Shown: positions 2,620 to 48,558 of the stretch, one piece after another | Layout of the letters: every line of letters starts with the position of its first letter | Numbering within the stretch: position 1 is the first letter of the stretch | From: Myxococcota bacterium | Lineage (GTDB): Bacteria; Myxococcota_A; UBA9160; SZUA-336 | Reading direction: 5' to 3' | DNA: 64,000 bases | Assembly (NCBI GenBank): GCA_965247115.1 | Contig: CBDFGR010000003.1 | Coordinates: 128,001 to 192,000 of the forward strand | Made by a program: the position numbers and the translations under genes | Notes under the pieces: generated by a model | What the model was told of the DNA's origin: nothing | Seen by the model: the letters and a program-made list of their open reading frames with translations, nothing else | The model's database searches: none

Positions 2620-5559
2620 GTGGAGAGTTCGGCGATCAGAGCGGTCGAAGAACGACTCGAGCTGACCGGCCTCGGAGCGGAGCTTCGCGCCGCCTGCGGG
2701 GTCGGGCCGGAGCCTCGGGCCGCGCTCCAGCGGGCAGGCGCCGTGCTGAGCGCCGCGGCCGAAGCGGATCCGTCGCGCTTGACCACGGCCTGGCAGCGCG
2801 ACGGGGCCGGGCTGGCCCGCGCGCTCTGCATTCCAGCCGGCATCGCACCCTTTCTCGTCCGCTACCTGGTCCGCTACCCTGGCTGGCTCTTCACGCTCGC
2901 TGAAGACGACCTCCGCGCGGCGCGTTCGACCGCCGACTACGAGACCGGCCTCGACGGGGCCCTTGCCGGAGTCTCGCCCCAAGAGGAGGACGACGCGCTC
3001 CGACGCTACAAGTACCTCGAGCTGGCGCGAATCACCCTGCGCGACGGATCGGACGACCTCGTACCGCAGGAAGCCGTGGGCGAGACCCTGGCAGAGCTGT
3101 CGCACCTTGCAGATGCTCTGCTCTCGCGGGCGCTGGAGGTCGCAGGACGCAGCCTTGCTAGCCGGCTGGGAGCGCCGCACTGGGAGGGAGCCGGTGGCGA
3201 AGAGGTCTCCCCCCGGTTCTGCGTGCTCGGACTCGGCAAGCTCGGCTCCGAGGAGCTGAACTATTCCTCCGACGTCGATCTTGTCTACGTGTTCGAGGCC
3301 GAGCCGATTTCCGCGGGGGTGCGCGATGGCCCCTCCGAGCTCGGGCCGCAGGAGTACTTCACCCGCCTCGCACACGAGTTCGGACGGCGCGTCGCGACCG
3401 CGACCTCAGAGGGATTCCTGTACAGAGTGGACCTCGGCCTGCGACCCGAAGGTGCCCAGGGGACGCTCGTCGTGTCCGGCGACTGGCTTGCGAGCTATTG
3501 CGACAGCTGGGCCGCGACCTGGGAGCTGGCCGCCTGGATGAAAGCTCGCCCCGTTGCGGGGGATCTCCGCTTTGGGTGGGACGTGATCCGCTCGCTCGCT
3601 CCCATGCTCTACCGCTCGGCAGTGGACTATGCGGGGGTCGAGGGCATCAAGTCGATGAAGAGGCGAATCGAGCGCGAGATGGAGCGCCGTGGCGAAGACT
3701 TCGATGTCAAGCTCGGGCAGGGCGGAATTCGCGACGTCGAGTTCGTGGCGCAGGCGCTGCAGCTCCTGCACGGCGGGCGCATTCCTCAGGTACGCGGGCG
3801 CTCGACGCAGAGCGCGCTCGTGTCGCTCGCAGAGTGCGGCGCGCTCGAGCGAGAGCAGGCAGAGGGTCTGCTCAGCTCGTACCGTTTCCTGCGACGCGTT
3901 GAGAATCGCCTGCAGATGCGCGAAGAGCGGCAGACGCATCGGCTTCCGCTTCAGGCAGAGGCCCGCGAGCGTCTGGCCCGCTCGCTCGGCTACGCAGGAC
4001 GCGACGGCGTCGCGGCTTTCGATACGGATCTCCAGAGCCAGCGCGAGCGTGTGCGCGGGATCTTCGACCAGCTCCTCTCGGAGGAGGGCAGCGATCGTGT
4101 CCTGCCGCTCTTTGCCCGAGGAGCCGCGCGGCTGCTGGCGATCCCCTCCACGCGCACGATGGTCGAGGATCTTGCCCAGCGCTTCGCTCGCGAGATCGAC
4201 ACGTCTGCCGATCCCGAGCTCGCCCTGAACAACCTCGATCGCTTCATCCAGGGAATCGGCACCCACCCGTCGTACTACGGTCTGCTCCTCGATCGCCCCG
4301 AGCTTGTTCCGCGGCTCGCGCGGCTCTTCGGCGCGTCCAGGTACCTGTCCATGTTCTTCGCTCGGCACCCGGACCTGATCGAACCGGTATTCCGAGATCC
4401 GGACACCCTGCTGCCTGCAAAGCAGGTCCTGCGCGACGACGCGGCGCAGATCCGCTTGCAGCTTGCGGAGCAAGGCCGCTTCGACGCGACTGCCGCCGAG
4501 TTCGCCGCGCTGCGTTTCTTCTACCACCGAGGCGTCGTGAACGTGGCGCTGCTCGACCTCGACGCAAAGATCACACGACCCGAGGCGGAGGTGGCTCTCA
4601 GCGAGATCGCCGACGTCTGCCTGGAGCGAGCCCTCGCACTTGCGCAGGAGCAGGTTCGAGCCTCGCTGGGGGGCCCGGTCACGGCGGCGGATTTTCTGGT
4701 CGTGGGTATGGGCAAACTCGGCAGTCGCGAACTCAGCTACGGCAGCGATCTCGACGTGATCTTCCTCTACGACCTCGAAGCCGGCGATGATGCCGCGTTG
4801 CTCGAGGCGCAGGGGTCTTCGGTTCAACTCGCGCAGAGGCTCATCGGCGCGCTGCAGACTCGCACAGCAGAGGGCACCTGCTACGAGGTGGACGCGCGCC
4901 TGCGACCATCGGGAAGACAGGGCACTCTGGTTACCTCGCGTGCCTCATTCCGGAGCTACCACGAGACCAGCGCGGTGTGGGAGCGCCAGTCGCTCCTGCG
5001 GGCGCGCTCGGTGGCCGGGAGTCCGACGCTTGCCGCGCGCTTCGAGGAGATCAGGCAAGAGATCCTCCGCCGGCCGCCCCGCGCTGACATCGCCGTAGAG
5101 ATCCACCGCTCCCGCTCGCGAATTGAGCGCGAGCTGGCGCAGGAGCGACGCGGGCGCTACGACCTGAAGACGGGTCGCGGGGGCCTCCTCGACGTGGAGG
5201 ACGTCGTCCAGTACTTGCAGCTTCGGAACGGCGCGGCGTATCCGCAGCTGTTCGACCCGGAGTCGATCGTGACGCAGCTGGGTCGGATCGAGGCACTGGG
5301 CCTGATCGGAGCTGAGCCGGCCGCGCGACTGCGCGAGGGGTGGGAGTTCCTCCAGCGACTGTCGAGCCGCCTCCGGATCGTCGAGAACCGCTCGATCTCC
5401 AACCTGGACGAGGACCGAGGGGACCTGGAGGCGGTGACGCGCGCCCTCGGGTATTCCGATTCCGGCCGGTCGGGCAGCTCCCGACGGCAGCTGCTGGACG
5501 ACTACCGACGTCACACCGAAGCGATACGCGCTGTCTACCTCGAGGTCCTGGCAGTCTGA
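2620..5559 (+). CDS. glnE: Bifunctional glutamine synthetase adenylyltransferase/deadenylylase
   Basis: Two nucleotidyltransferase motifs (GKLGSEELNYSSDVDL; GKLGSRELSYGSDLDV), VDxxLRP and KxGxGGxxDVE motifs, 979 aa. Confidence 0.95.
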   Translation: MESSAIRAVEERLELTGLGAELRAACGVGPEPRAALQRAGAVLSAAAEADPSRLTTAWQRDGAGLARALCIPAGIAPFLVRYLVRYPGWLFTLAEDDLRAARSTADYETGLDGALAGVSPQEEDDALRRYKYLELARITLRDGSDDLVPQEAVGETLAELSHLADALLSRALEVAGRSLASRLGAPHWEGAGGEEVSPRFCVLGLGKLGSEELNYSSDVDLVYVFEAEPISAGVRDGPSELGPQEYFTRLAHEFGRRVATATSEGFLYRVDLGLRPEGAQGTLVVSGDWLASYCDSWAATWELAAWMKARPVAGDLRFGWDVIRSLAPMLYRSAVDYAGVEGIKSMKRRIEREMERRGEDFDVKLGQGGIRDVEFVAQALQLLHGGRIPQVRGRSTQSALVSLAECGALEREQAEGLLSSYRFLRRVENRLQMREERQTHRLPLQAEARERLARSLGYAGRDGVAAFDTDLQSQRERVRGIFDQLLSEEGSDRVLPLFARGAARLLAIPSTRTMVEDLAQRFAREIDTSADPELALNNLDRFIQGIGTHPSYYGLLLDRPELVPRLARLFGASRYLSMFFARHPDLIEPVFRDPDTLLPAKQVLRDDAAQIRLQLAEQGRFDATAAEFAALRFFYHRGVVNVALLDLDAKITRPEAEVALSEIADVCLERALALAQEQVRASLGGPVTAADFLVVGMGKLGSRELSYGSDLDVIFLYDLEAGDDAALLEAQGSSVQLAQRLIGALQTRTAEGTCYEVDARLRPSGRQGTLVTSRASFRSYHETSAVWERQSLLRARSVAGSPTLAARFEEIRQEILRRPPRADIAVEIHRSRSRIERELAQERRGRYDLKTGRGGLLDVEDVVQYLQLRNGAAYPQLFDPESIVTQLGRIEALGLIGAEPAARLREGWEFLQRLSSRLRIVENRSISNLDEDRGDLEAVTRALGYSDSGRSGSSRRQLLDDYRRHTEAIRAVYLEVLAV

Positions 5560-38396: not shown

Positions 38397-39896
38397 CTAG
38401 AACTCCGACACCCACTTGATCGTTCCAGACACATGCATGCGCGACGGTAGGTCCGAGCCGCCGGCCTCGAGCTCTTCCGTCGTGGTAGCGGCACCGGCCG
38501 CAACGTCGAGCTGCAGGTGCGTGAAGCGCAGACCGAATCCCGCGGTGACGGTGATCCCATCGTCCCCGTCGGACGCGAGGTTCTTGTAGGCCCCGGCCCG
38601 GAGCGCGAGGCTCCCCACCCAGAAGGGGATCCGGAGCTCCGTACCCAGCGAGAGCATGCGCGAGGAGAAGCCGTCGACGTTGATGGACTCGTTCTCCGTG
38701 AGATCGTAGTCCGCGGCCAGCAGCCAGTTCGGTGTCAGATTCAGGCCGATGCCGGCGCGGATCTGCTCGTCGAGCTCCACACCGTCAGGACCGTTGCTCT
38801 TGAACTCCGGCGTGTTCAGGTTCTTTGCGACGACCCCGACGCGGAGCCAGTCCACGGGCTTGAGCAAGACCCCGACGTCTACCGCCATGCGTTGGCTGGT
38901 CTCCCTGTTGTTGGAATCGGTGATGTCATCGACCAGATCATCCGTACCGGTGATGTCGTCGTACTGGATAAAGGTGTAGTACGACATCCCGTATACAGCG
39001 CGGACGCTGGCCCCGACACCGATCCGCTCGCTGAACAGAGGATGCCCGTAGGCAAGCCCGACCTCCTGCGTCAGGAGCCCCTGCACGAGCACGCCGCTCC
39101 CGTTCCGCGAGAGATCGAGTGCTGTGATCCCGCCGGTCGCGTTCGCGACGCGCGAGACGATGTCCTGGATGGGCAGCGTCGACGTGTCGAGCCCTGCGAG
39201 CTCCGCCTGGAAGACGAGCTCCTCGGCCTGGTCCTGAGACCAGGTCCCGAGAGCCAACGCAATGGTGTCGGCGAGCGCCTGGCTGCCAGCATTCGTGAAG
39301 ACCCCGGAACGGTCGGCGCCCACACCCACCACGTTCGCCACCTGGGTGAGCGCATCGAGATCGTCACTGAAGGAAAGCCCTGTGAGGTCGAGGATCGGGT
39401 CGAGCCCAAAGGAGCCGTTCGTCTTGGTACTGAGCATCAGGCCCCGCCTGCGGAAGTTCAGCCCCGTGTCCAGGCCGGTCAGGAATCCCTCGGCGTCGGC
39501 TCCCAGGGAGACCAGCTTGTCTGCAAGCGCGAGTGAATCCTGCAGCTCGGCCGCGGTCAAGACCTGGCCGGCTTGAATCTTGGTCAGAACCGCATCAAAG
39601 CTGTTCGCGTCGATGAACTGGACGATGTCGTCGGCATCGCGAATCACCTCGCCCACGGACAGGGCCGTTGCGCTGAAGGGCAGCTCAAACTCCGACGACT
39701 GCGTGAAGACCAGCGCACCCGGGTTCCAGTGCGCGGCCCGGTTGTCGTTGACGATGGCAACTCCAGCGCCGCCCATTGCCTGATACCGCGAGCCCTGGAT
39801 CGCCCACTCCTCCGCCCTTGCGGTAGACGCGAGGACCGCGTGAATGCATAAAAGGGTTGCTGCTACCAAGAGCAGGAGACGGCCGTGCTTACTCAT
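38397..39896 (-). CDS. TraF_2-like / FadL-like outer membrane beta-barrel protein with helical insert
   Basis: Signal peptide, AMGGAGVA...HWNPGAL, VVAKNLNTPEF, QIRAGI, LRAGAY, terminal Phe. Confidence 0.7.
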   Translation of the reverse strand: MSKHGRLLLLVAATLLCIHAVLASTARAEEWAIQGSRYQAMGGAGVAIVNDNRAAHWNPGALVFTQSSEFELPFSATALSVGEVIRDADDIVQFIDANSFDAVLTKIQAGQVLTAAELQDSLALADKLVSLGADAEGFLTGLDTGLNFRRRGLMLSTKTNGSFGLDPILDLTGLSFSDDLDALTQVANVVGVGADRSGVFTNAGSQALADTIALALGTWSQDQAEELVFQAELAGLDTSTLPIQDIVSRVANATGGITALDLSRNGSGVLVQGLLTQEVGLAYGHPLFSERIGVGASVRAVYGMSYYTFIQYDDITGTDDLVDDITDSNNRETSQRMAVDVGVLLKPVDWLRVGVVAKNLNTPEFKSNGPDGVELDEQIRAGIGLNLTPNWLLAADYDLTENESINVDGFSSRMLSLGTELRIPFWVGSLALRAGAYKNLASDGDDGITVTAGFGLRFTHLQLDVAAGAATTTEELEAGGSDLPSRMHVSGTIKWVSEF

Positions 39897-40099
39897 GTGT
39901 TCCCCTCCCGACGGAGTGCGTGGCTGTGCGGCCGACCGGATCGGCCCGCTTCTGTTCGGAGCTTCGTCGAGCGGGCCCCAAACTTGAGGAGGCGGGCGAC
40001 GGCTCAGCTTCCCGAGCTCTTCCACACAGACAGCTGCCTCGCGCCTTTGGCTGCACGAGTTGCAGCGTCGTTGCGTATCGACGCCCTCGGTCCGGCGGC

Positions 40100-40127
40100 T
40101 AAGGGCAGCCTCGCGATCTGCCGAAAC
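40100..40127 (+). promoter_or_regulatory. Sigma28-like promoter TAAGG-N15-GCCGAAAC
   Basis: 16 nt upstream of GTG 40144; shared spacing. Confidence 0.5.
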
Positions 40128-40143
40128 AGCAGCCGAGGTGGCT

Positions 40144-40821
40144 GTGCTCCGCTCGACTTCCGTCTACGACCGAACGCGAGTGCTCAAGGCGGCGGCTCGC
40201 GCGCGCTCCAAGCGTCGTCGCAAGAAGGCGATCGCGCTCTACCGCTGGGTGCTCGCCGTCGAGCCGGGCAACGCGGAGATTCACGGCAAGCTCGCCCCCC
40301 TGCTCGCTCGCACCGGCCAGACCTTCGATGCCTGGGTGAGCTACCGTCGCGCCGCGCGAGGCCTGGCACGAGAGGGGTTGACGGAGAAGGCGCTGGGGAT
40401 CTACCGGGAGGCGGGGAGCTACCTGCCTCGGCAGCTCGAGACCTGGCTTGCCATCTTCGAGCTGGAGCGGCAGCGAGGCCGCGACGCCGACGCGAGAGAG
40501 GCCCTCCTCGAGGGTCGCCGGCGCTTCCGGGGCCGACGCTTTCGCCCGCAGGCGATCTACCTGCTCAGGCGCATGCGCACCGTCGATCCCTGGGAGCTCG
40601 AGACCGTCCTCGATCTCTCGCTGCTGCTCGCCAAGACCGGCCAGCGCCGCGAGGCGGAGATGCTGCTTCGGGAGATGGGGTCCCGCTGCAGGGGACGCCC
40701 GCTGCGGCGCGTGCGCACGGCCCAGTGGAGGATGAGTCCATCCATCGCCAACACCTGGCTGTGGCTGCACGCCATGTTCCAGACGGGCGGAAGGTCGGCG
40801 CCCGCCCGAGCCTCCCGCTAG
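40144..40821 (+). CDS. Basic TPR-like helical repeat protein
   Basis: KAIALYRWVLAVEPGN, KALGIYREA, QAIYLLRRM..VDPW repeats. Confidence 0.7.
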   Translation: MLRSTSVYDRTRVLKAAARARSKRRRKKAIALYRWVLAVEPGNAEIHGKLAPLLARTGQTFDAWVSYRRAARGLAREGLTEKALGIYREAGSYLPRQLETWLAIFELERQRGRDADAREALLEGRRRFRGRRFRPQAIYLLRRMRTVDPWELETVLDLSLLLAKTGQRREAEMLLREMGSRCRGRPLRRVRTAQWRMSPSIANTWLWLHAMFQTGGRSAPARASR

Positions 40822-40824
40822 CGA

Positions 40825-41142
40825 CTAGGGCTGCACGAGCGGGGTCGCGGATCTCTTCCACCCGCTGACCCGACAGCCGAGACAGCGTATGAAGGTCGCC
40901 TCTGCGGGACCCCTCACGAGCACGTCGAAGAACGAGGGATCCCGGCTGAAATAGGTGAACGGCAGCGTTACCGCATAGATAGCAGCCCCGACGAGAGTAA
41001 CGCCCAAGGTCGCGGGTCGGGTGAAAAGCGCGTCCCCGGCGTACACGACGTACTGCCTGATCGGCTGTCCGTACAGCTGGTCCGCCTGTGCCGGTGCGGC
41101 CAGGCAGGTCGCGAGTAGCGTGGCCACGAGAAGTCTGCCCAT
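40825..41142 (-). CDS. Small exported/membrane hypothetical protein
   Basis: Signal peptide (AQA), DALFTRP..G....TLPF, PAEATF.RCLG pattern; AGGAGG RBS. Confidence 0.75.
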   Translation of the reverse strand: MGRLLVATLLATCLAAPAQADQLYGQPIRQYVVYAGDALFTRPATLGVTLVGAAIYAVTLPFTYFSRDPSFFDVLVRGPAEATFIRCLGCRVSGWKRSATPLVQP

Positions 41143-41291
41143 CACAGTTCCTCCTTCCGCATTTTTCTCGAGCGTGAGTAGTGAGGGTATTATCCCTCGT
41201 TAGCTTGGACGCCGGCAAGAAGCATGATGGTGGGTGGGCACTGCTGCCGATACGATACGCAGCGCGGCACCACGCGCGGAGGGGCAGCGAG

Positions 41292-43199
41292 ATGAGCCAC
41301 CCCTGCAAGCGCCGCGACGCGGCGCGCGCAGCCAGGGCCGTTGGCCTCTGCGGAGGTGGAAGGAGCGCAGCCCTATGGGCAATGCTCCTCCTCTTGCTCT
41401 CCCCTGCGGCCTGGGCGGGCGAGACGCTTCTGGTCATGGATGTGTCCGAGAGCATGGCCACGACGTGTCCAGCGGGCGAGGACTCCCTGCTCTCACTCGC
41501 AATCGCGAGAGTCCGAGAACACCTGGACGCTCTGCCCCCGGGCGAAGCACAAGTGGGTCTGATCGCATTTGCCGCGGAGGCCGTGGTTCTTCAGCTGCCA
41601 ACGACGGACATCGGCGCCCTCCGGACACTCGTGGCCACCGCAACGCCAGTTCCAGAGACCGCTTCGCTGCTCGGGGCCCTGGTCACCGCGGCCCGCGTCC
41701 TGGAAGAACGCGGGACAGAGCAGGGTAGTCGGATCCTCGTTTTTAGCTCCGGTGGCACCGATGCTGGCGGGCCGCTCCTCGCGCTTCTCGCCTCGCTCCA
41801 CGCACGGGGCGTGTCGGTCGAGATCGAGCTACTCGAGCCGCGCCAGTCGAGCAGCGGTGAGGCGTGGGGGAGCGTCGACACCAGGGTTCGCGCAAGCGCG
41901 TGCGCCGGCGGCGAGCCGGCCGCGGCAGGCAGCCAGATGGAGGACTCGGTCCGCCGCACCGTCGCACGCCAGCTCGGGGTTCCCGCCGAGAGCCTGAGCC
42001 CCGGCACCGACCTCGTCGAGGACCTGGGGGTGGATCGCGCTACGGCGTTCGAGGTCCTGGCGCGCATCAGCGACGAGTACGAGGTGAGGGTTCCCGATTC
42101 CGGCGATCTCACCCGGATCGGTGCGATCGCGGACTACGTGGCCAGCGTCGAGGGCGCTGGCCTCCGAACCCGAGCTCCCAGCTCCGCGTACGTCCAGACC
42201 ATCCTCTACGGGACGAACCGCAAGCCCAAGCGTTCGTCAGATCCCGTCGATCTCTACTCCAGCGAACGCAGCCGTGTCGGCCAGCTCCACTACGGCGCGT
42301 GCGAGGTTTCGATCCCGCTGCGCGCGCACAAGCCGGGCTCTCTCGAGACGCCATTTCTCGACCTCGAGTACCTGGCCGATGGGAGGCAGCACATCTCGTT
42401 GAAGAAGGTGGAGCCGATGGACAAGGCCGGTTTCTTTCGAGGCCTGCGCTCCAAGCTGCATTCGGAGGACGTGAGCGAGGGCCCGCGGGCAGACGCCATG
42501 GTCTTCATTCCGGGCTTCAACACCACGTTCGGCAGCGTGGCGCGGAGGACCGCGCAGATGTCGTACGACCTCGGCTTCCGCGGTGCTCCGATCATGTTCT
42601 CCTGGCCGTCCGACGGGAGCGCCCTTGGTTACCTGCCCGATCGCGAAGACATCGAGTGGAGCGTGCCTCATATCGAGAGGTTCCTGACGGAGATCATCGA
42701 GGAGGGGAGCCCCCGAAGGCTGCATCTGATCGCGCACAGCATGGGCAACGAGGGCCTGCTCAGGGCCCTGATGCTCATCGCGACGCGCACGAACCCAGGA
42801 GACCCACCACTCTTCGAGAACGTCATCCTGGCCGCTCCGGACTTCGACGCGCAGATCTTCGCAGAGCAGACCGCACCGCGGGTCCGCGGTCTCGCCCGAC
42901 GCTGGACAGTGTACGTCTCCGACCAGGATGGCGCGCTCAACGTGTCGAGCAAGATTCGAAGTGCAAGGCGACTCGGTCTCCCCATCACGCTCACTGCAGG
43001 AGTGGACACCGTAGATGCTACGGGAGTCGAGGTGACACCCTGGAGTGTACCCGAGTTCCACTCCTACTACGCCACGAAGCAGCTTGTTATTGCCGACCTG
43101 ATCGGCGTGCTCGAGGGACTCGACCCGTCCAGCCGCCGGCTGTTCTCCCTGATGAGCGGCGAGCTCCCCTACTGGTCGTTCACGGAGGGGCTCCCGTAG
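41292..43199 (+). CDS. Putatively secreted vWA + ACP-like + DUF900 alpha/beta hydrolase fusion protein
   Basis: Signal peptide (SPAAWA), LVMDVSESM (MIDAS), ACP-like segment with DLGVDR, then GTNR, GFNTTF, FSWPS, AHSMG, AAPD. Start 41292 or 41382. Confidence 0.8.
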   Translation: MSHPCKRRDAARAARAVGLCGGGRSAALWAMLLLLLSPAAWAGETLLVMDVSESMATTCPAGEDSLLSLAIARVREHLDALPPGEAQVGLIAFAAEAVVLQLPTTDIGALRTLVATATPVPETASLLGALVTAARVLEERGTEQGSRILVFSSGGTDAGGPLLALLASLHARGVSVEIELLEPRQSSSGEAWGSVDTRVRASACAGGEPAAAGSQMEDSVRRTVARQLGVPAESLSPGTDLVEDLGVDRATAFEVLARISDEYEVRVPDSGDLTRIGAIADYVASVEGAGLRTRAPSSAYVQTILYGTNRKPKRSSDPVDLYSSERSRVGQLHYGACEVSIPLRAHKPGSLETPFLDLEYLADGRQHISLKKVEPMDKAGFFRGLRSKLHSEDVSEGPRADAMVFIPGFNTTFGSVARRTAQMSYDLGFRGAPIMFSWPSDGSALGYLPDREDIEWSVPHIERFLTEIIEEGSPRRLHLIAHSMGNEGLLRALMLIATRTNPGDPPLFENVILAAPDFDAQIFAEQTAPRVRGLARRWTVYVSDQDGALNVSSKIRSARRLGLPITLTAGVDTVDATGVEVTPWSVPEFHSYYATKQLVIADLIGVLEGLDPSSRRLFSLMSGELPYWSFTEGLP

Positions 43200-43952: not shown

Positions 43953-44801
43953 ATGGCTACCCTATACTGGTATGGCCCCCGTCAGGAGGAGCAGATCAGT
44001 ACTCCCGAGGACAGAGGACCTGCGGACGAGAGCTCGCCGAGCGCCGGGAGCGAGCGACCAAGCTTCGCGCAGCGCAGAGAACGACCCCGAGAAGGCGGAG
44101 CGTGGATGCTGATCGTGGCCCTGGCGGCCGCCTTCCCGATCTACTGGGGCTACCAGCGCTTCATCGCCACCGACGACGCCCAGCAAAGCTCCAGCGCAGA
44201 GGAGGAGCGAGCTGACTTTCTCGCCGTTGCCGACGACTACGCTGCAAGCCTGTTCGCGGAGGGACGGTGGGAGGAAGCAGCCAAGGCGTACCGCGTGGTG
44301 CGAGAGAGATACCTCGAGGCCAACGACGGGGTCCACGACGAGTCCGCCGCAGCCCTCCTCTTCAACCAAGCCGCGAGCGAGCTGAACCGGGGCAGGAGCG
44401 ACGTCGCGCAGACGCTTCTGCTGGAGCTTCAAGTAGAGGCGCCGACGTATCGCCCGGAGGAGATCGCGGAGCTCGTCCGGGAGACGGCCGACCGAGCCCC
44501 GACCGATCGGTACGAGTACCTGACGGCACAGGCATCGTCGGCCTTTGACGAGGGCAACTGGACGCTAGCGGTACAGCGCTACCGGGAGCTCCTGGTCCAC
44601 CTGCGTTCGATGGGGTACTCCGAGACCGACGACCTGTTCTCGCAGGCCATGTTCGACCAGGCCATGGCGTACTCGAATGAAGGTCAGTACGTGGAGGCCG
44701 AACGGATCCTGAACGACCTCAAGGCAGGCAACCCGGACTACGACCCTGCTCGCATCGACGAGCAGCACCAGCGCGTCATCGCGCTTCTCCGGGACCAGTA
44801 A
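43953..44801 (+). CDS. Single-pass membrane-anchored TPR protein
   Basis: One TM segment then two duplicated TPR pairs (F.EG.W..A...YR / LFNQA and MFDQA). Confidence 0.72.
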   Translation: MATLYWYGPRQEEQISTPEDRGPADESSPSAGSERPSFAQRRERPREGGAWMLIVALAAAFPIYWGYQRFIATDDAQQSSSAEEERADFLAVADDYAASLFAEGRWEEAAKAYRVVRERYLEANDGVHDESAAALLFNQAASELNRGRSDVAQTLLLELQVEAPTYRPEEIAELVRETADRAPTDRYEYLTAQASSAFDEGNWTLAVQRYRELLVHLRSMGYSETDDLFSQAMFDQAMAYSNEGQYVEAERILNDLKAGNPDYDPARIDEQHQRVIALLRDQ

Positions 44802-45351
44802 ACCTTCGGCAGCGGAACACGAAGTCGGAGTGGCCGATCCGGAAGCGGTCGCCGTCCTGGAGGGGCTGCTCGGCTCCCTGCAAGAGACCGCGGAAGTAGG
44901 TGCCGTTCTTGCTCTCGAGGTCGCGGAGAAAGTACCGCTCGCCGGTCCGGATGATCGCAGCGTGGCGCCGGCTCACGGAGTCATCCTCGAGCGTCACCTC
45001 GACTCCAGGGTCGCGACCTACCACCGTCCTCGGGCCGGCTACGGTGAATTCGCGCCCGATCTCTCCGCCGCCGTAGACCATGAGAACCGCCTCCCGAGGC
45101 ACGGTTTCCAGCGCGGGGCCTGGGCGTTCTAGAGGAGCGGGGGCCTCAGGGGGACCGACGAAGAAGGTCGACTTCTCCAGCGCCACTCCGGAGTCGAACG
45201 CGGCCTTGCGCTGCTCCTCGCCGACGATCGCGCGCTCGGCGCTCTCCAGCTTCCTGTGGTTGCCGCGATCGCGCGCCTCGTCAGCAACGCCGTACAGGAA
45301 ATCCAGCGTCGCATCCGCAGCCGCGCGCCTCGCATCCACACTTTTGCCCAC
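44776..45351 (-). CDS. FHA domain protein
   Basis: VGRD, SVSRRHA, DLESKNGT, LQDGD.F.IG; start inferred as GTG 45351. Confidence 0.85.
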   Translation of the reverse strand: MGKSVDARRAAADATLDFLYGVADEARDRGNHRKLESAERAIVGEEQRKAAFDSGVALEKSTFFVGPPEAPAPLERPGPALETVPREAVLMVYGGGEIGREFTVAGPRTVVGRDPGVEVTLEDDSVSRRHAAIIRTGERYFLRDLESKNGTYFRGLLQGAEQPLQDGDRFRIGHSDFVFRCRRFTGPGEAR

Positions 45352-45385
45352 CCGTGAACCCCCCGGACAGCCGGTCGTCCGCACC

Positions 45386-45413
45386 GAATCGGCGGGGCCG
45401 CGCGTGAACTTTA
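45386..45413 (-). promoter_or_regulatory. Sigma28-like promoter TAAAG-N15-GCCGATTC
   Basis: Best match in the window to TAAAGTT...GCCGAT; upstream of the FHA gene. Confidence 0.65.
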
Positions 45414-45486
45414 GCCTGGGGGCTCCACCTTGACCCATAAGCCGCGCGCCGCGCCGCCGAGTCGCTTCCCGCCCGCAGCTCGCGTC

Positions 45487-45514
45487 TAAAGTCCGCGCTC
45501 GCCGTGACAGATAA
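45487..45514 (+). promoter_or_regulatory. Sigma28-like promoter TAAAG-N15-ACAGATAA
   Basis: Divergent partner site upstream of the PilZ gene. Confidence 0.45.
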
Positions 45515-45520
45515 GGGAGC

Positions 45521-45832
45521 ATGAACCCGGAGCGCAGCGCGAGTACCCGCCACGAGATCCCGGCACCCGTCGCGTACTGGGGTCCCGATCTCAGGGGCGA
45601 TGGCACGATCGCGAACATCTCCGCCTCCGGTGCCCTCATCGAGCGAGCGTCCTCTCCCGTCAGCAAAGGCACGCGCCTGGGCATCCTCGTGCGCTACTTT
45701 CCGGACGGCGCCGAGCACTGCTCGCTCGAACTCTCGTCGGAAGTCGTACGCACGACGGACGGCGGCTTCGCGGTGCAGTTTCAGAACCTCGGACCCGAAG
45801 CCCTCTTCCTTCTCTGCGGACTACTCGGCTAG
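45521..45832 (+). CDS. Stand-alone PilZ domain protein
   Basis: ERSASTR (R-rich motif), NISASGA, EVVR..GGFAVQF. Confidence 0.85.
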   Translation: MNPERSASTRHEIPAPVAYWGPDLRGDGTIANISASGALIERASSPVSKGTRLGILVRYFPDGAEHCSLELSSEVVRTTDGGFAVQFQNLGPEALFLLCGLLG

Positions 45833-46080: not shown

Positions 46081-48558
46081 ATGGTCCGCCTACTGCAACA
46101 CGCATATCACGGGCTCTTTCTGACACGCCCGCAGACTGCTCTCACGCTCCTACTTCTGCTTCTCGCCTTCTTCTCGTACCACGCGAAGGACTTCCGGCTC
46201 GACGCCTCGGCCGACTCGCTCCTGCTGGAGAACGACAAGGATCTTCAGCTGTTCCGCGAGGTCAGCGCGCGCTACGACACCCGAGATTTCCTGGTCGTCA
46301 CCTTCACGCCCCCCGGCGACCTGTTCTCCGACGAATCCCTGTCCCTTCTCCAACGGGTTCGCGACGAGCTGCGTTCGCTCGAAGGCGTGGATTCCGTCCT
46401 GAGCATCCTGGACGTACCGCTGGTCAGGAGCTCCGACGTTCCCCTGCTACAGATGGCTGAGTCTGTCCAGACTCTGGAGACTCCCACAGTCGACCGCGCG
46501 CGGGCCCGCGATGAGCTCGTCAACAGCCCGGTCTACCGAGATCAACTGATCAGCCCGGACATGCAGACCTCGGGGCTGCTGATCAGCCTGGAGAAAGACC
46601 AGCGCCTCTCCACCCTCCAGGAGGCGCGCAACAGGCTGTTCATGAGACAGGGATCCGGGCAGCTGAGCGACGCCGACCGGCGGGAGCTGAAGGCAGTATC
46701 GGTCGCGTACAAAGCGGAGCGGGAGACGTTCAACGAGAGGCGCCATGGGGAAATCGCGCAGGTGCGAGCGGTGCTCAGCGGGTACCGCGGGCTCGTCCGT
46801 CTACACCTTGGCGGGGTGCCCATGATCGCGGACGACATGATCACCTTCGTACGGAACGACCTGATCACGTTCGGAACAGGCGTCCTCGTCTTCCTGATCG
46901 TCGTGCTGACCGTGATCTTCCGCCAGACTCGGTGGGTGGTTCTGCCCTTGCTGAGCTGCTTCTACGCTGGCATGACCATGATCGGGCTCCTCGGGCTGAT
47001 CGGTTGGGAAGTCACCGTCATCTCTTCGAACTTCCTGTCGCTGATGCTGATTATCACGATCTCCATGAACATCCACCTCGCGGTCCGATACAGACAGCTG
47101 TACGGCGACTTGCCGGAAGCCAGTCACCTCGAGCTGGTCTCCCTGACACTGCGACGGATGGTCTGGCCGTGCCTCTACACCGCGCTCACGACCATCATCG
47201 GGTTCAGCTCGCTTGTGTTCAGCAACATAAAGCCCGTGCAGGACTTCGGCTGGATGATGAGCGTCGGATTGGCAGTGGCTTTCCTGACCTGCTTCTCGCT
47301 GTTTCCCACGGTGCTGATGTTGCTCGGGAAGCCGCGGTCCGGCGTTCGCCAGCAGAAAGATCTGCGGGTCACCAGCAGGCTTGCCGCCTTCACAGAACGC
47401 CGCGGGAATGTCGTGCTGGTGGCTGCAGTCGTCATGATGATCGTCAGCGGGATCGGGATCTCGCGACTTACCGTCGAGAACAGCTTCATCAACTACTTCC
47501 GGACCGATACCGAGATCTACCAGGGCATGAAGCTCATCGACGAGAAGCTCGGGGGAACCACCCCGCTGGAGGTCCTGCTCAACCTTGATAGCGCGCCAAA
47601 AGAGGAGGAGGTGGCGGAGCTGGAGGAGCTGGACGAAGAGGACTTCGAAGACTGGGATATCGACGTGGCTGCCGCACCGGCGTACTGGTTCACTCCCCTC
47701 CGGATCGAGCGGATCAAGCAGGTCCACGACTACCTGGACGGGCTGCCTGAGGTCGGCAAGGTCCTGTCCCTCGCGTCTGTCATCCGCGTCGCAGAGGAGC
47801 TGAACGACGGCAAGGAACTCGACGGCCTCGAGCTCTCCCTGCTCTACCAGCGCTTGCCCGAGGAGGTCAAAGGGTCCCTCGTCGATCCGTACTTCTCCTT
47901 CGAGCACAACGAAGCGCGCATACAGGTCCGGATCCTGGACTCCAGGGAAGACCTGCGCCGACAGGAGCTGCTGGAACGGATCCGCGACGATCTCCACGGT
48001 CGACTGGACCTGGCTCCGGAGGACGTCACCGTGACCGGCATGCTCGTTCTCTACAACAACATGCTCCAGAGCCTGTACACGTCGCAGATCTCGACCCTGG
48101 GGGCAGTCATGGTCGGCATTGCGATCATGTTCCTCCTCCTCTTCCGGTCGGCCCTGCTCGCCGTCATCGGCATCATCCCCAACGTGCTCGCCGCCACCAC
48201 CGTCCTCGGACTGATGGGGCTTGCCGGGATTCCACTGGACATGATGACCATCACGATCGCCGCGATCACGATCGGCATCGCGGTCGATAATGCCATCCAC
48301 TACATCTACCGCTTCCGCGAGGAGTTCCCCCAGCAGCCCGGCTACGCGGAGACCCTGCGCGTCTGTCACTCGAACATCGGGAGGGCGGTGCTCTACACGT
48401 CGACGACGATCATCTTCGGCTTCTCGATCCTCATGCTCTCGAACTTCCTTCCGACCATCTACTTCGGCGCCTTGACGGGACTCGCGATGTTCATCGGACT
48501 CCTGGCATCGCTCACGCTTCTGCCACGACTTCTGCTGCTGTGGAAGCCTTTCGCCTAG
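46081..48558 (+). CDS. MMPL/RND superfamily lipid exporter
   Basis: Two repeats of TM1 + periplasmic loop + 5 TM; LTTIIGFSSL, GIAVDNAIH, GRAVLYTS motifs. Confidence 0.9.
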   Translation: MVRLLQHAYHGLFLTRPQTALTLLLLLLAFFSYHAKDFRLDASADSLLLENDKDLQLFREVSARYDTRDFLVVTFTPPGDLFSDESLSLLQRVRDELRSLEGVDSVLSILDVPLVRSSDVPLLQMAESVQTLETPTVDRARARDELVNSPVYRDQLISPDMQTSGLLISLEKDQRLSTLQEARNRLFMRQGSGQLSDADRRELKAVSVAYKAERETFNERRHGEIAQVRAVLSGYRGLVRLHLGGVPMIADDMITFVRNDLITFGTGVLVFLIVVLTVIFRQTRWVVLPLLSCFYAGMTMIGLLGLIGWEVTVISSNFLSLMLIITISMNIHLAVRYRQLYGDLPEASHLELVSLTLRRMVWPCLYTALTTIIGFSSLVFSNIKPVQDFGWMMSVGLAVAFLTCFSLFPTVLMLLGKPRSGVRQQKDLRVTSRLAAFTERRGNVVLVAAVVMMIVSGIGISRLTVENSFINYFRTDTEIYQGMKLIDEKLGGTTPLEVLLNLDSAPKEEEVAELEELDEEDFEDWDIDVAAAPAYWFTPLRIERIKQVHDYLDGLPEVGKVLSLASVIRVAEELNDGKELDGLELSLLYQRLPEEVKGSLVDPYFSFEHNEARIQVRILDSREDLRRQELLERIRDDLHGRLDLAPEDVTVTGMLVLYNNMLQSLYTSQISTLGAVMVGIAIMFLLLFRSALLAVIGIIPNVLAATTVLGLMGLAGIPLDMMTITIAAITIGIAVDNAIHYIYRFREEFPQQPGYAETLRVCHSNIGRAVLYTSTTIIFGFSILMLSNFLPTIYFGALTGLAMFIGLLASLTLLPRLLLLWKPFA

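Follow-up and report, generated by a model that had tools for sequence, protein, structure and literature searches.

What can an acyl carrier protein (ACP) fold do in a protein that appears to leave the cytoplasm? By the textbook account, ACPs are cytoplasmic carriers of a cofactor. The question is raised by a gene in a stretch of 64,000 nucleotides (the window) from a Myxococcota bacterium (UBA9160; SZUA-336; assembly GCA_965247115.1, contig CBDFGR010000003.1, positions 128,001–192,000). The gene lies in an open reading frame (ORF) that spans 41181..43199 on the forward strand and, with the ATG taken at 41292, encodes a protein of 635 amino acids, P0001. The original prediction, made from the letters of the DNA alone, described the ORF 41292–43199 as a fusion of a vWA domain, an ACP-like domain and a DUF900 hydrolase, which was borne out by a Pfam scan, a fold search and a check of the codons. 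Our answer, to which we assign a probability of about 0.45, is that P0001 would be a lipase-type zymogen of the cell envelope, located outside the cytoplasm and gated by a protease, with the vWA domain and the serine-less ACP domain (the pseudo-ACP) as its pro-region or docking part.

All three Pfam domains of P0001 scored above their curated cut-offs: VWA_2 at residues 45–154 (45.6 bits; cut-off 27), PP-binding (PF00550) at residues 219–282 (35.8 bits; cut-off 20.8; E 9.5e-9) and DUF900 (PF05990) at residues 392–604 (138.7 bits; cut-off 20.5). AlphaFold2 modeled the full-length protein with a predicted local distance difference test score (pLDDT) of 85.1 and a predicted TM-score (pTM) of 0.69. 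The ACP and hydrolase part was folded separately (residues 205–635; pLDDT 87.8, pTM 0.82); a Foldseek search with the full-length model gave matches to the vWA domain only. The matches to P0001 in the ESM Atlas were exclusively clusters named hypothetical protein or DUF900, and no PADLOC model matched the protein.

For the middle domain, the match to the PP-binding profile agrees with the ACP-like segment proposed earlier. The ACP models of NCBIfam also match, but with 31 bits against cut-offs of 66–106, so that the domain is to be regarded as a diverged ACP homologue and not as an ordinary ACP. A profile built from 23 family members matched solved ACPs in the PDB at E 7.4e-11, and in the profile alignment the Asp-Arg of P0001 is set over the Asp-Ser of their carrier motif. 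The predicted model of this part superimposed on E. coli-type ACPs with TM-scores of 0.80–0.86 and root-mean-square deviations of 1.4–2.4 Å over 73–76 residues, and an exhaustive structural search gave Z scores of 11.1–11.3 against ACPs. These comparisons support an ACP helical-bundle fold, as modeled, for residues 212–288. The codon CGC, which had been read as Arg in place of the carrier Ser, was verified and encodes Arg249. The domain thus shares with ACPs of the E. coli AcpP type (PF00550) sequence homology, the helical bundle, the Asp that precedes the Ser position, a conserved hydrophobic core and a net acidity, whereas it differs from them in having Arg for the carrier Ser, in following a predicted export signal and in being fused to a hydrolase.

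Relatives of P0001 were collected by a word-indexed search, which returned 278 sequences, and by an exhaustive search of 1.84 billion representatives with the profile of the three-domain alignment A1, which gave 17,885 matches at E≤1e-3 and 5,111 when the threshold was E≤1e-30; almost all of these matches cover the hydrolase only. Among the best 150 profile matches, 19 clusters have all three domains, 8 have a degenerate N-terminal domain and 24 consist of the ACP-like domain and the hydrolase only; within these 150 the score falls from 413 to 345 bits, and below the drop DUF900 stands alone. The family discussed here comprises the approximately 50 clusters at 50% identity that carry both the ACP-like domain and DUF900, and its members come from metagenome-assembled genomes (MAGs) labelled Myxococcota, Chromatiales, Deltaproteobacteria, Desulfobulbus, Nitrospinaceae, Alphaproteobacteria and Gammaproteobacteria. 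The ACP-like domain sets these clusters apart from DUF900 hydrolases at large, being confined to about 50 clusters as compared to the 5,111 that match the A1 profile at the stricter threshold. The architecture is a trait of a family and not the oddity of one gene. A word-indexed search with the ACP segment alone returned the five closest relatives only, the reach of this index to other exported enzymes being limited.

Across 52 sequences of the family (51 representatives and P0001), the position of the carrier Ser is occupied by Arg in 12, Gln in 8, Ser in 7, Pro in 7, Thr in 4, Ala in 4, Glu in 3, His in 3, Phe in 2, Tyr in 1 and Leu in 1. The phosphopantetheine Ser is present in just 7 of the 52, and the pseudo-ACP that cannot be loaded, which had been proposed for P0001 and was to be checked in its homologues, holds family-wide. 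Conversely, conservation is seen at the Asp that precedes the Ser site, in the DLG loop, at the Pro that follows helix II and at the positions of the hydrophobic core, and the domains are acidic (median net charge −5.5). The retention of the fold residues, together with the free variation at the Ser site, indicates selection on the fold but not on the cofactor site. Apart from the fold residues, we found no conserved surface patch on the ACP-like domains of the family.

P0001 begins with a basic n-region, followed by the h-region AALWAMLLLLL and a putative cleavage site at AWA|GE, and the signal-peptide-like segment noticed previously is conserved in kind across homologues. In A1, every one of the 23 sequences extending to the N-terminus has the same layout of basic n-region, hydrophobic core and small-x-small site, the last placed immediately ahead of the first vWA strand. 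A crude heuristic scan scored 46 of 52 representatives as strictly signal-peptide-like and found an N-terminal hydrophobic segment in 51, P0172 having none; in the five with hydrophobic but non-strict N-termini, the start codons are probably mis-called. Lipoboxes occur in some family members. Export is therefore predicted for P0001 and for the family by pattern scan rather than by a dedicated predictor such as SignalP. Taken with the alignments, these observations support the view that the middle domain is, throughout the family, a true ACP homologue that is not loadable at the canonical site and belongs to a protein whose export signal is conserved. In our literature searches, no account turned up of an exported hydrolase fused to an ACP that lacks its serine, in agreement with the original statement that no protein of this architecture had been described.

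The DUF900-type hydrolase with an AHSMG elbow was likewise confirmed, both by the Pfam match and by the elbow residue Ser483. Ser483, Asp517 and His590 are invariant or nearly so in the relatives (alignments A1–A3), suggesting that they form a catalytic triad, with Asp519 as the alternative acid. A sequence profile search of the PDB returned no α/β-hydrolase among the 60 matches listed. With the hydrolase model, Foldseek matched folds of the cutinase/polyesterase type and of Streptomyces lipase only weakly (E ~5e-5, TM-score ~0.4), and the exhaustive structural search gave a flat list with Z scores of 11–13, headed by vespid phospholipase A1, PhaZ7, lipases, Tle3 and PlaB (Z 12–13) together with PGAP1 and LPLA2. 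For the predicted model, these searches mean a lipase-like α/β-hydrolase and nothing finer.

DUF900 is given as a domain of unknown function in the available part of one source (PMC11878206). The preprint on cinquedea, as far as its accessible text goes, describes a secreted bactericidal phospholipase of Haloferax and reports that 69% of its archaeal homologues carry DUF900 (bioRxiv 10.64898/2026.06.10.730825). P0001 resembles such enzymes in its DUF900 domain, for which it has a strong Pfam match, in its GxSxG-type elbow and in its predicted export, and the likeness is drawn through the shared family only. Among close relatives, DUF900 is also found fused to C14 (P0215 and P0253), CHAT (P0120), papain C1 (P0201, P0212 and P0231) and TIR (P0101) domains, which suggests that it is a widely reused effector-type module. 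The three papain C1 fusions additionally contain a Glucodextran_B-like domain and one of them a DUF4384 domain; P0194 is a fusion of DUF4384 with DUF900.

For the vWA part, Foldseek matched the vWA domains of BatB (3ibs; E 4e-8), Rpn10 and CMG2. The DVSES motif of the metal-ion-dependent adhesion site (MIDAS; D50-x-S52-x-S54) and the replacement of the later Asp (ILVFSSGG), both of which had been pointed out before, are present in the sequence and the alignment: the Asp of the β4 TDG motif is Ser in P0001 (FSSGG). In A1, Asp50 and Ser52 are conserved and the third Ser is not. Judged by these residues, the MIDAS of P0001 is incomplete.

What sets the ACP-bearing clade apart is the company that its genes keep. 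Local hidden Markov models were built from the first examples of caspase-like C14 and CHAT proteases, all fetched loci were scanned with them, and loci were collapsed at 90% identity of the hydrolase domain. A C14 or CHAT gene was present in the fetched DNA for 23 of 32 ACP-clade clusters, as compared to 1 of 30 DUF900-only controls with a complete N-terminus; where the flank measured 4 kb or more, the counts were 21/23 and 1/19, respectively. The ACP-clade loci that lack a protease are mostly contigs shorter than 4 kb. Eleven clusters with a truncated target gene were left out of this count; a C14 gene lies nearby in two of these as well (L009 and L062). The spacing between the protease and hydrolase genes is often 0–200 bp, and the two genes are often on the same strand. 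No published description connecting DUF900 with caspase-like proteases emerged from our literature searches.

The neighbouring proteases appear to be catalytically intact and exported. All 16 newly found ones scored above the Pfam cut-off, and the catalytic His of GHG and Cys of DxC are kept in 27 of 27 aligned C14 domains. Many are fused to TPR, WD40, HEAT, Sel1, CARDB or DUF4384 domains. An opening signal-peptide or lipobox-like segment was seen in 20 of the 22 protease ORFs examined, the other two being unclear, and phospholipase D (PLD)-type and DUF4384 lipoproteins that recur at the family loci begin in the same manner. With proteases and lipoproteins that look exported, the neighbourhood as a whole looks extracytoplasmic. 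On the partner genes, PADLOC matched only generic "caspase" and "TPR" models and DrmC (PLD). A homotypic adaptor, in which the proteases would also carry an ACP-like domain, was rejected, since no ACP-like matches were found in the partner proteases.

Other genes recur at these loci as well. At several three-domain loci (L003:7856-12454; L004:11-4371; L005:1058-5817; L006:4509-5159), an exported protein set accompanies the hydrolase and the C14 protease; it consists of a signal-peptide protein of ~550 amino acids without a Pfam match, a lipoprotein of ~710 amino acids ending in DUF4384, and a lipoprotein of ~215 amino acids that shares the N-terminal region of the latter. A PLDc_2 lipoprotein gene lies directly upstream of a two-domain ACP-DUF900 gene at L007:2518-4185, L012:4210-5823 and L013:4310-5896, and is also present in L006:1-1379. 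In the PLD-type loci, two predicted lipolytic enzymes are encoded next to a TPR-CHAT protease, which fits a lipase-type chemistry of the hydrolase.

The linker between the last helix of the ACP-like domain and the first strand of the hydrolase is variable in length and unalignable across the family, and in P0001 it is the low-confidence part of the model (pLDDT <50 at residues 290–294). Nevertheless, it is marked by one short motif. When compared with composition-preserving shuffles, Arg-Gly was found in 42 of 84 distinct family linkers versus 16.8±3.2 expected (maximum 28 in 500 shuffles), R.RG in 11 of 84 versus 1.3±1.1, and [RK]G in 51 of 84 versus 28.6±3.9, whereas the reverse motif, Gly-Arg, was depleted (7 of 84 versus 16.6). 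The 40 residues that precede the hydrolase in DUF900-only relatives showed a weak excess of Arg-Gly (42/144 versus 30.9±4.5, maximum 47). According to the accessible text of PMC6426788, orthocaspases cleave after positively charged residues. A second, internal cut at the invariant Arg326 was set aside, because all DUF900 relatives share this residue and a cut there would remove conserved strands.

The protease neighbours and the Arg-Gly motif of the linker point to a role of the vWA and pseudo-ACP parts as pro-region or docking part over an acyl-chain function, and together they make a protease-gated envelope zymogen the most likely reading. In the mechanism that we envisage, a caspase-like protease exported alongside the hydrolase would cleave the flexible linker behind an Arg, the cut would release or activate the DUF900 hydrolase, and the freed domain would act as a lipase-type hydrolase on a lipid or an ester of the envelope. 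The wider proposal, that in this family an exported caspase-like protease licenses an envelope DUF900 lipase whose pro-region is a cofactor-free ACP fold outside the cytoplasm, as an envelope counterpart of caspase-gated death-effector modules, is put forward tentatively. Bacterial gasdermin modules are similar in that a latent, membrane-directed effector gene lies beside a C14 or CHAT protease fused to TPR or WD40 repeats. They differ in that the effector of the present family is an enzyme and not a pore former, and in that its compartment is likely the envelope and not the cytoplasm.

The closest precedent is the LcCaspase/LcHydrolase pair of Lysobacter capsici, which we cite from the accessible text of the preprint (Evans et al. 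2025, PMC12642450). There, LcCaspase cuts the α/β-hydrolase zymogen LcHydrolase at two R|G sites that are conserved in 161 homologues, and the cleaved LcHydrolase, whose substrate is given as unknown, kills cells. By that description, the two systems share a caspase-like protease gene beside an α/β-hydrolase gene, Arg-Gly at the scissile site (here a proposed one), a protease that is often fused to repeats (WD40) and a lipase-like hydrolase. Conversely, LcHydrolase, a protein of ~33 kDa, is cut twice inside its fold, whereas the motif of our family lies in an inter-domain linker and the hydrolase is of the DUF900 type, with a pseudo-ACP and with or without a vWA domain. That preprint does not mention signal peptides or the periplasm. 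The licensing of an α/β-hydrolase by a caspase-like protease at R|G is already in print, as a preprint (PMC12642450); new here is an extracytoplasmic, DUF900-based version with an exapted ACP fold.

Several observations weigh against a protease-gated zymogen. The linker of P0001 itself, L-R-T-R|A-P-S-S, has Ala and not Gly after R-T-R. The fold matches obtained for the hydrolase are generic. No protease gene lies within reach in two long-flanked family clusters (L031/32/38/39/40 and L042), and the loci behind the linkage counts are interrelated and derived from MAGs or metagenomes, so that the counts overstate their independence. The LcHydrolase system is cytoplasmic and equipped with phage sensors (PMC12642450), whereas both partners look exported in the DUF900 family. 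In addition, the genome of the window, at 98% completeness, contains no Peptidase_C14 and no CHAT gene, and the proposed activator is thus missing, whereas the LcHydrolase system has its protease linked.

The genome of the window (5.17 Mb in 3 contigs) has a single DUF900 gene. Among 40 relatives, a true orthologue was found only in a genome of the same genus (L001/G002); the other matches were ordinary ACPs or a DUF900 paralogue with 33% identity. The gene is therefore accessory and patchy. The sister locus (contig C28; L001:1360-6000) contains an extra segment of ~2.7 kb between the lipoprotein and hydrolase genes, with an OmpA-like gene and a C14 gene whose product bears a signal peptide. 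The sister hydrolase gene is, however, split at codon ~78 by an insertion sequence (IS) of 1.27 kb (DDE transposase, DUF772/DDE_Tnp_1), at a site matching 41523/41524 of the window. With the protease absent in one genome and the hydrolase split in the other, each lacks one half of the pair. The 5′ part of the sister locus also contains a short tandem duplication (L001 4371-4428 / 4464-4521).

Between the window and sister copies, the ratio of nonsynonymous to synonymous substitution rates (dN/dS) of the hydrolase gene is 0.23, as compared to 0.09–0.24 for the neighbouring genes, with values of 0.30 for the vWA domain, 0.42 for the ACP domain and 0.17 for the hydrolase. The window gene is under purifying selection relative to the sister copy. 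In the genome of the window, the enzyme may be latent, activated through a cut by another protease, active without cleavage, or on its way out.

An autonomous secreted or periplasmic esterase or lipase, in which the pseudo-ACP forms an acyl-chain pocket, a lid or an autoinhibitory mimic, the vWA domain serves adhesion and no protease is involved, comes closest to the original reading. It fits an intact gene that is under purifying selection and stands alone in a C14- and CHAT-free genome, the retained hydrophobic core and acidity of the ACP domain, the pTM of the two-domain model, and the resemblance of an ACP–α/β-hydrolase pair to the pairs formed by carriers and thioesterases. However, it leaves unexplained why the ACP-bearing clade, and hardly other DUF900 clades, is tied to caspase-like protease genes and why an Arg-Gly motif persists in an otherwise unalignable linker, and it finds no conserved surface patch on the ACP domain apart from the fold residues. 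We consider it unlikely. In a predicted complex of the pseudo-ACP (residues 208–292) with the hydrolase (residues 296–635), the ipSAE interface score was 0.00 in two runs without controls, a value that says nothing either way on docking.

The pseudo-ACP, alone or together with the vWA domain, might instead be a docking or scaffold module that recruits the hydrolase to the TPR, WD40 or HEAT repeats of the protease or to another envelope protein, cleavage not being the switch. Binding to other proteins is a general property of ACPs, vWA domains take part in protein contacts, and the partner proteases do carry TPR, WD40, HEAT or Sel1 repeats. The partners have no ACP-like domain that would support a homotypic adaptor, the genome of the window offers no partner at all, and the linker motif suits the P1 preference of the protease family, as reported in the accessible text of PMC6426788. 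This makes docking without cleavage a rather improbable explanation. It would be more surprising still if the window gene were an orphan left over from a two-gene module that has lost its protease by deletion, and had no current role or a changed one. The lack of C14 and CHAT genes, the sister locus that keeps its OmpA-like and C14 genes upstream of a split hydrolase, and the restriction of the true orthologue to the same genus all speak for such a remnant. Conversely, the reading frame is unbroken, retains every conserved catalytic position and follows a good ribosome-binding site, its dN/dS is low, and there are other full-length relatives at 78–82% identity to P0001 (P0002–P0005). A protease-gated zymogen would account for both the family linkage and the linker motif; the features of the gene in the window are listed in Table 1.

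Table 1. Positions in the window of the P0001 gene, its domains and its proposed functional residues
Feature	Position	Strand	Basis
Shine-Dalgarno-like GGAGGGG	41278..41284	+	GGAGG 9 nt 5′ of ATG
Coding sequence of P0001, 635 aa + stop: signal peptide, vWA, pseudo-ACP, linker, DUF900 hydrolase	41292..43199	+	
Predicted Sec-type signal peptide, residues 1–42, AWA|GE	41292..41417	+	Sequence and conserved pattern in alignment A1
vWA domain, residues 44–203, incomplete MIDAS	41421..41900	+	Pfam VWA_2, Foldseek, alignment
Serine-less ACP-fold domain, residues 212–288	41925..42155	+	Pfam PP-binding, PDB profile matches, AlphaFold2 with Foldseek/VIA-align
CGC, Arg249 at the phosphopantetheine-Ser position	42036..42038	+	Codon and alignment to the DS motif
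Flexible linker AGLRTRAPSS, residues 289–298, R292-T-R294|A295; candidate protease site	42156..42185	+	Low pLDDT; family Arg-Gly/Arg-small enrichment
DUF900 α/β-hydrolase domain, residues 299–635, including N-terminal β-extension	42186..43196	+	Pfam, AlphaFold2, fold search
Ser483, AHSMG elbow nucleophile	42738..42740	+	Nearly invariant in A1 and A3, invariant in A2
Asp517 (AAPDFD), probable triad acid (Asp519 as alternative)	42840..42842	+	Invariant in A2 and A3
His590 (PEFHSYY), probable triad base	43059..43061	+	Invariant in A3

The immediate neighbours of the gene in the window are a small lipoprotein-like ORF in divergent orientation and a convergent nitroreductase gene, and no neighbouring gene of the window was found conserved with the family outside the same genus. 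Upstream lie an ORF for a TraF_2/PorP-like outer-membrane β-barrel (38397–40025, reverse strand), a TPR protein gene (40060–40821, forward strand) and a small signal-peptide ORF without a Pfam match (40825–41145, reverse strand), which are conserved with the same-genus genome only. Downstream are genes for FHA-domain and PilZ-domain proteins and an MMPL/RND-type transporter (44776–45832 and 46081–48558), for which no link to the finding was seen. The TraF_2-like barrel, TPR, nitroreductase, FHA, PilZ and MMPL genes were dropped as context, their synteny being with the same-genus genome only.

Most three-domain relatives share three Cys residues: Cys59 in the vWA domain (41466–41468), one just after this domain (residue ~201, ~41892) and Cys337 in the motif YGxCEVSIP (42300–42302). 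A disulfide would be in keeping with a protein outside the cytoplasm.

Overall, a family that keeps the ACP fold without its serine behind predicted export signals indicates that the fold has been reused for another purpose. The link to the proteases offers a testable function for DUF900 hydrolases, for periplasmic orthocaspases and CHAT proteases, and for the pseudo-ACP together. If the proposal is true, the logic of proteolysis-gated effectors would extend from the cytoplasm to the cell envelope, and the family would be the first case of an ACP fold as a cofactor-less regulatory domain in the envelope. The window and sister genomes would then represent a module caught in decay, its protease lost in one and its hydrolase disrupted by an IS in the other.

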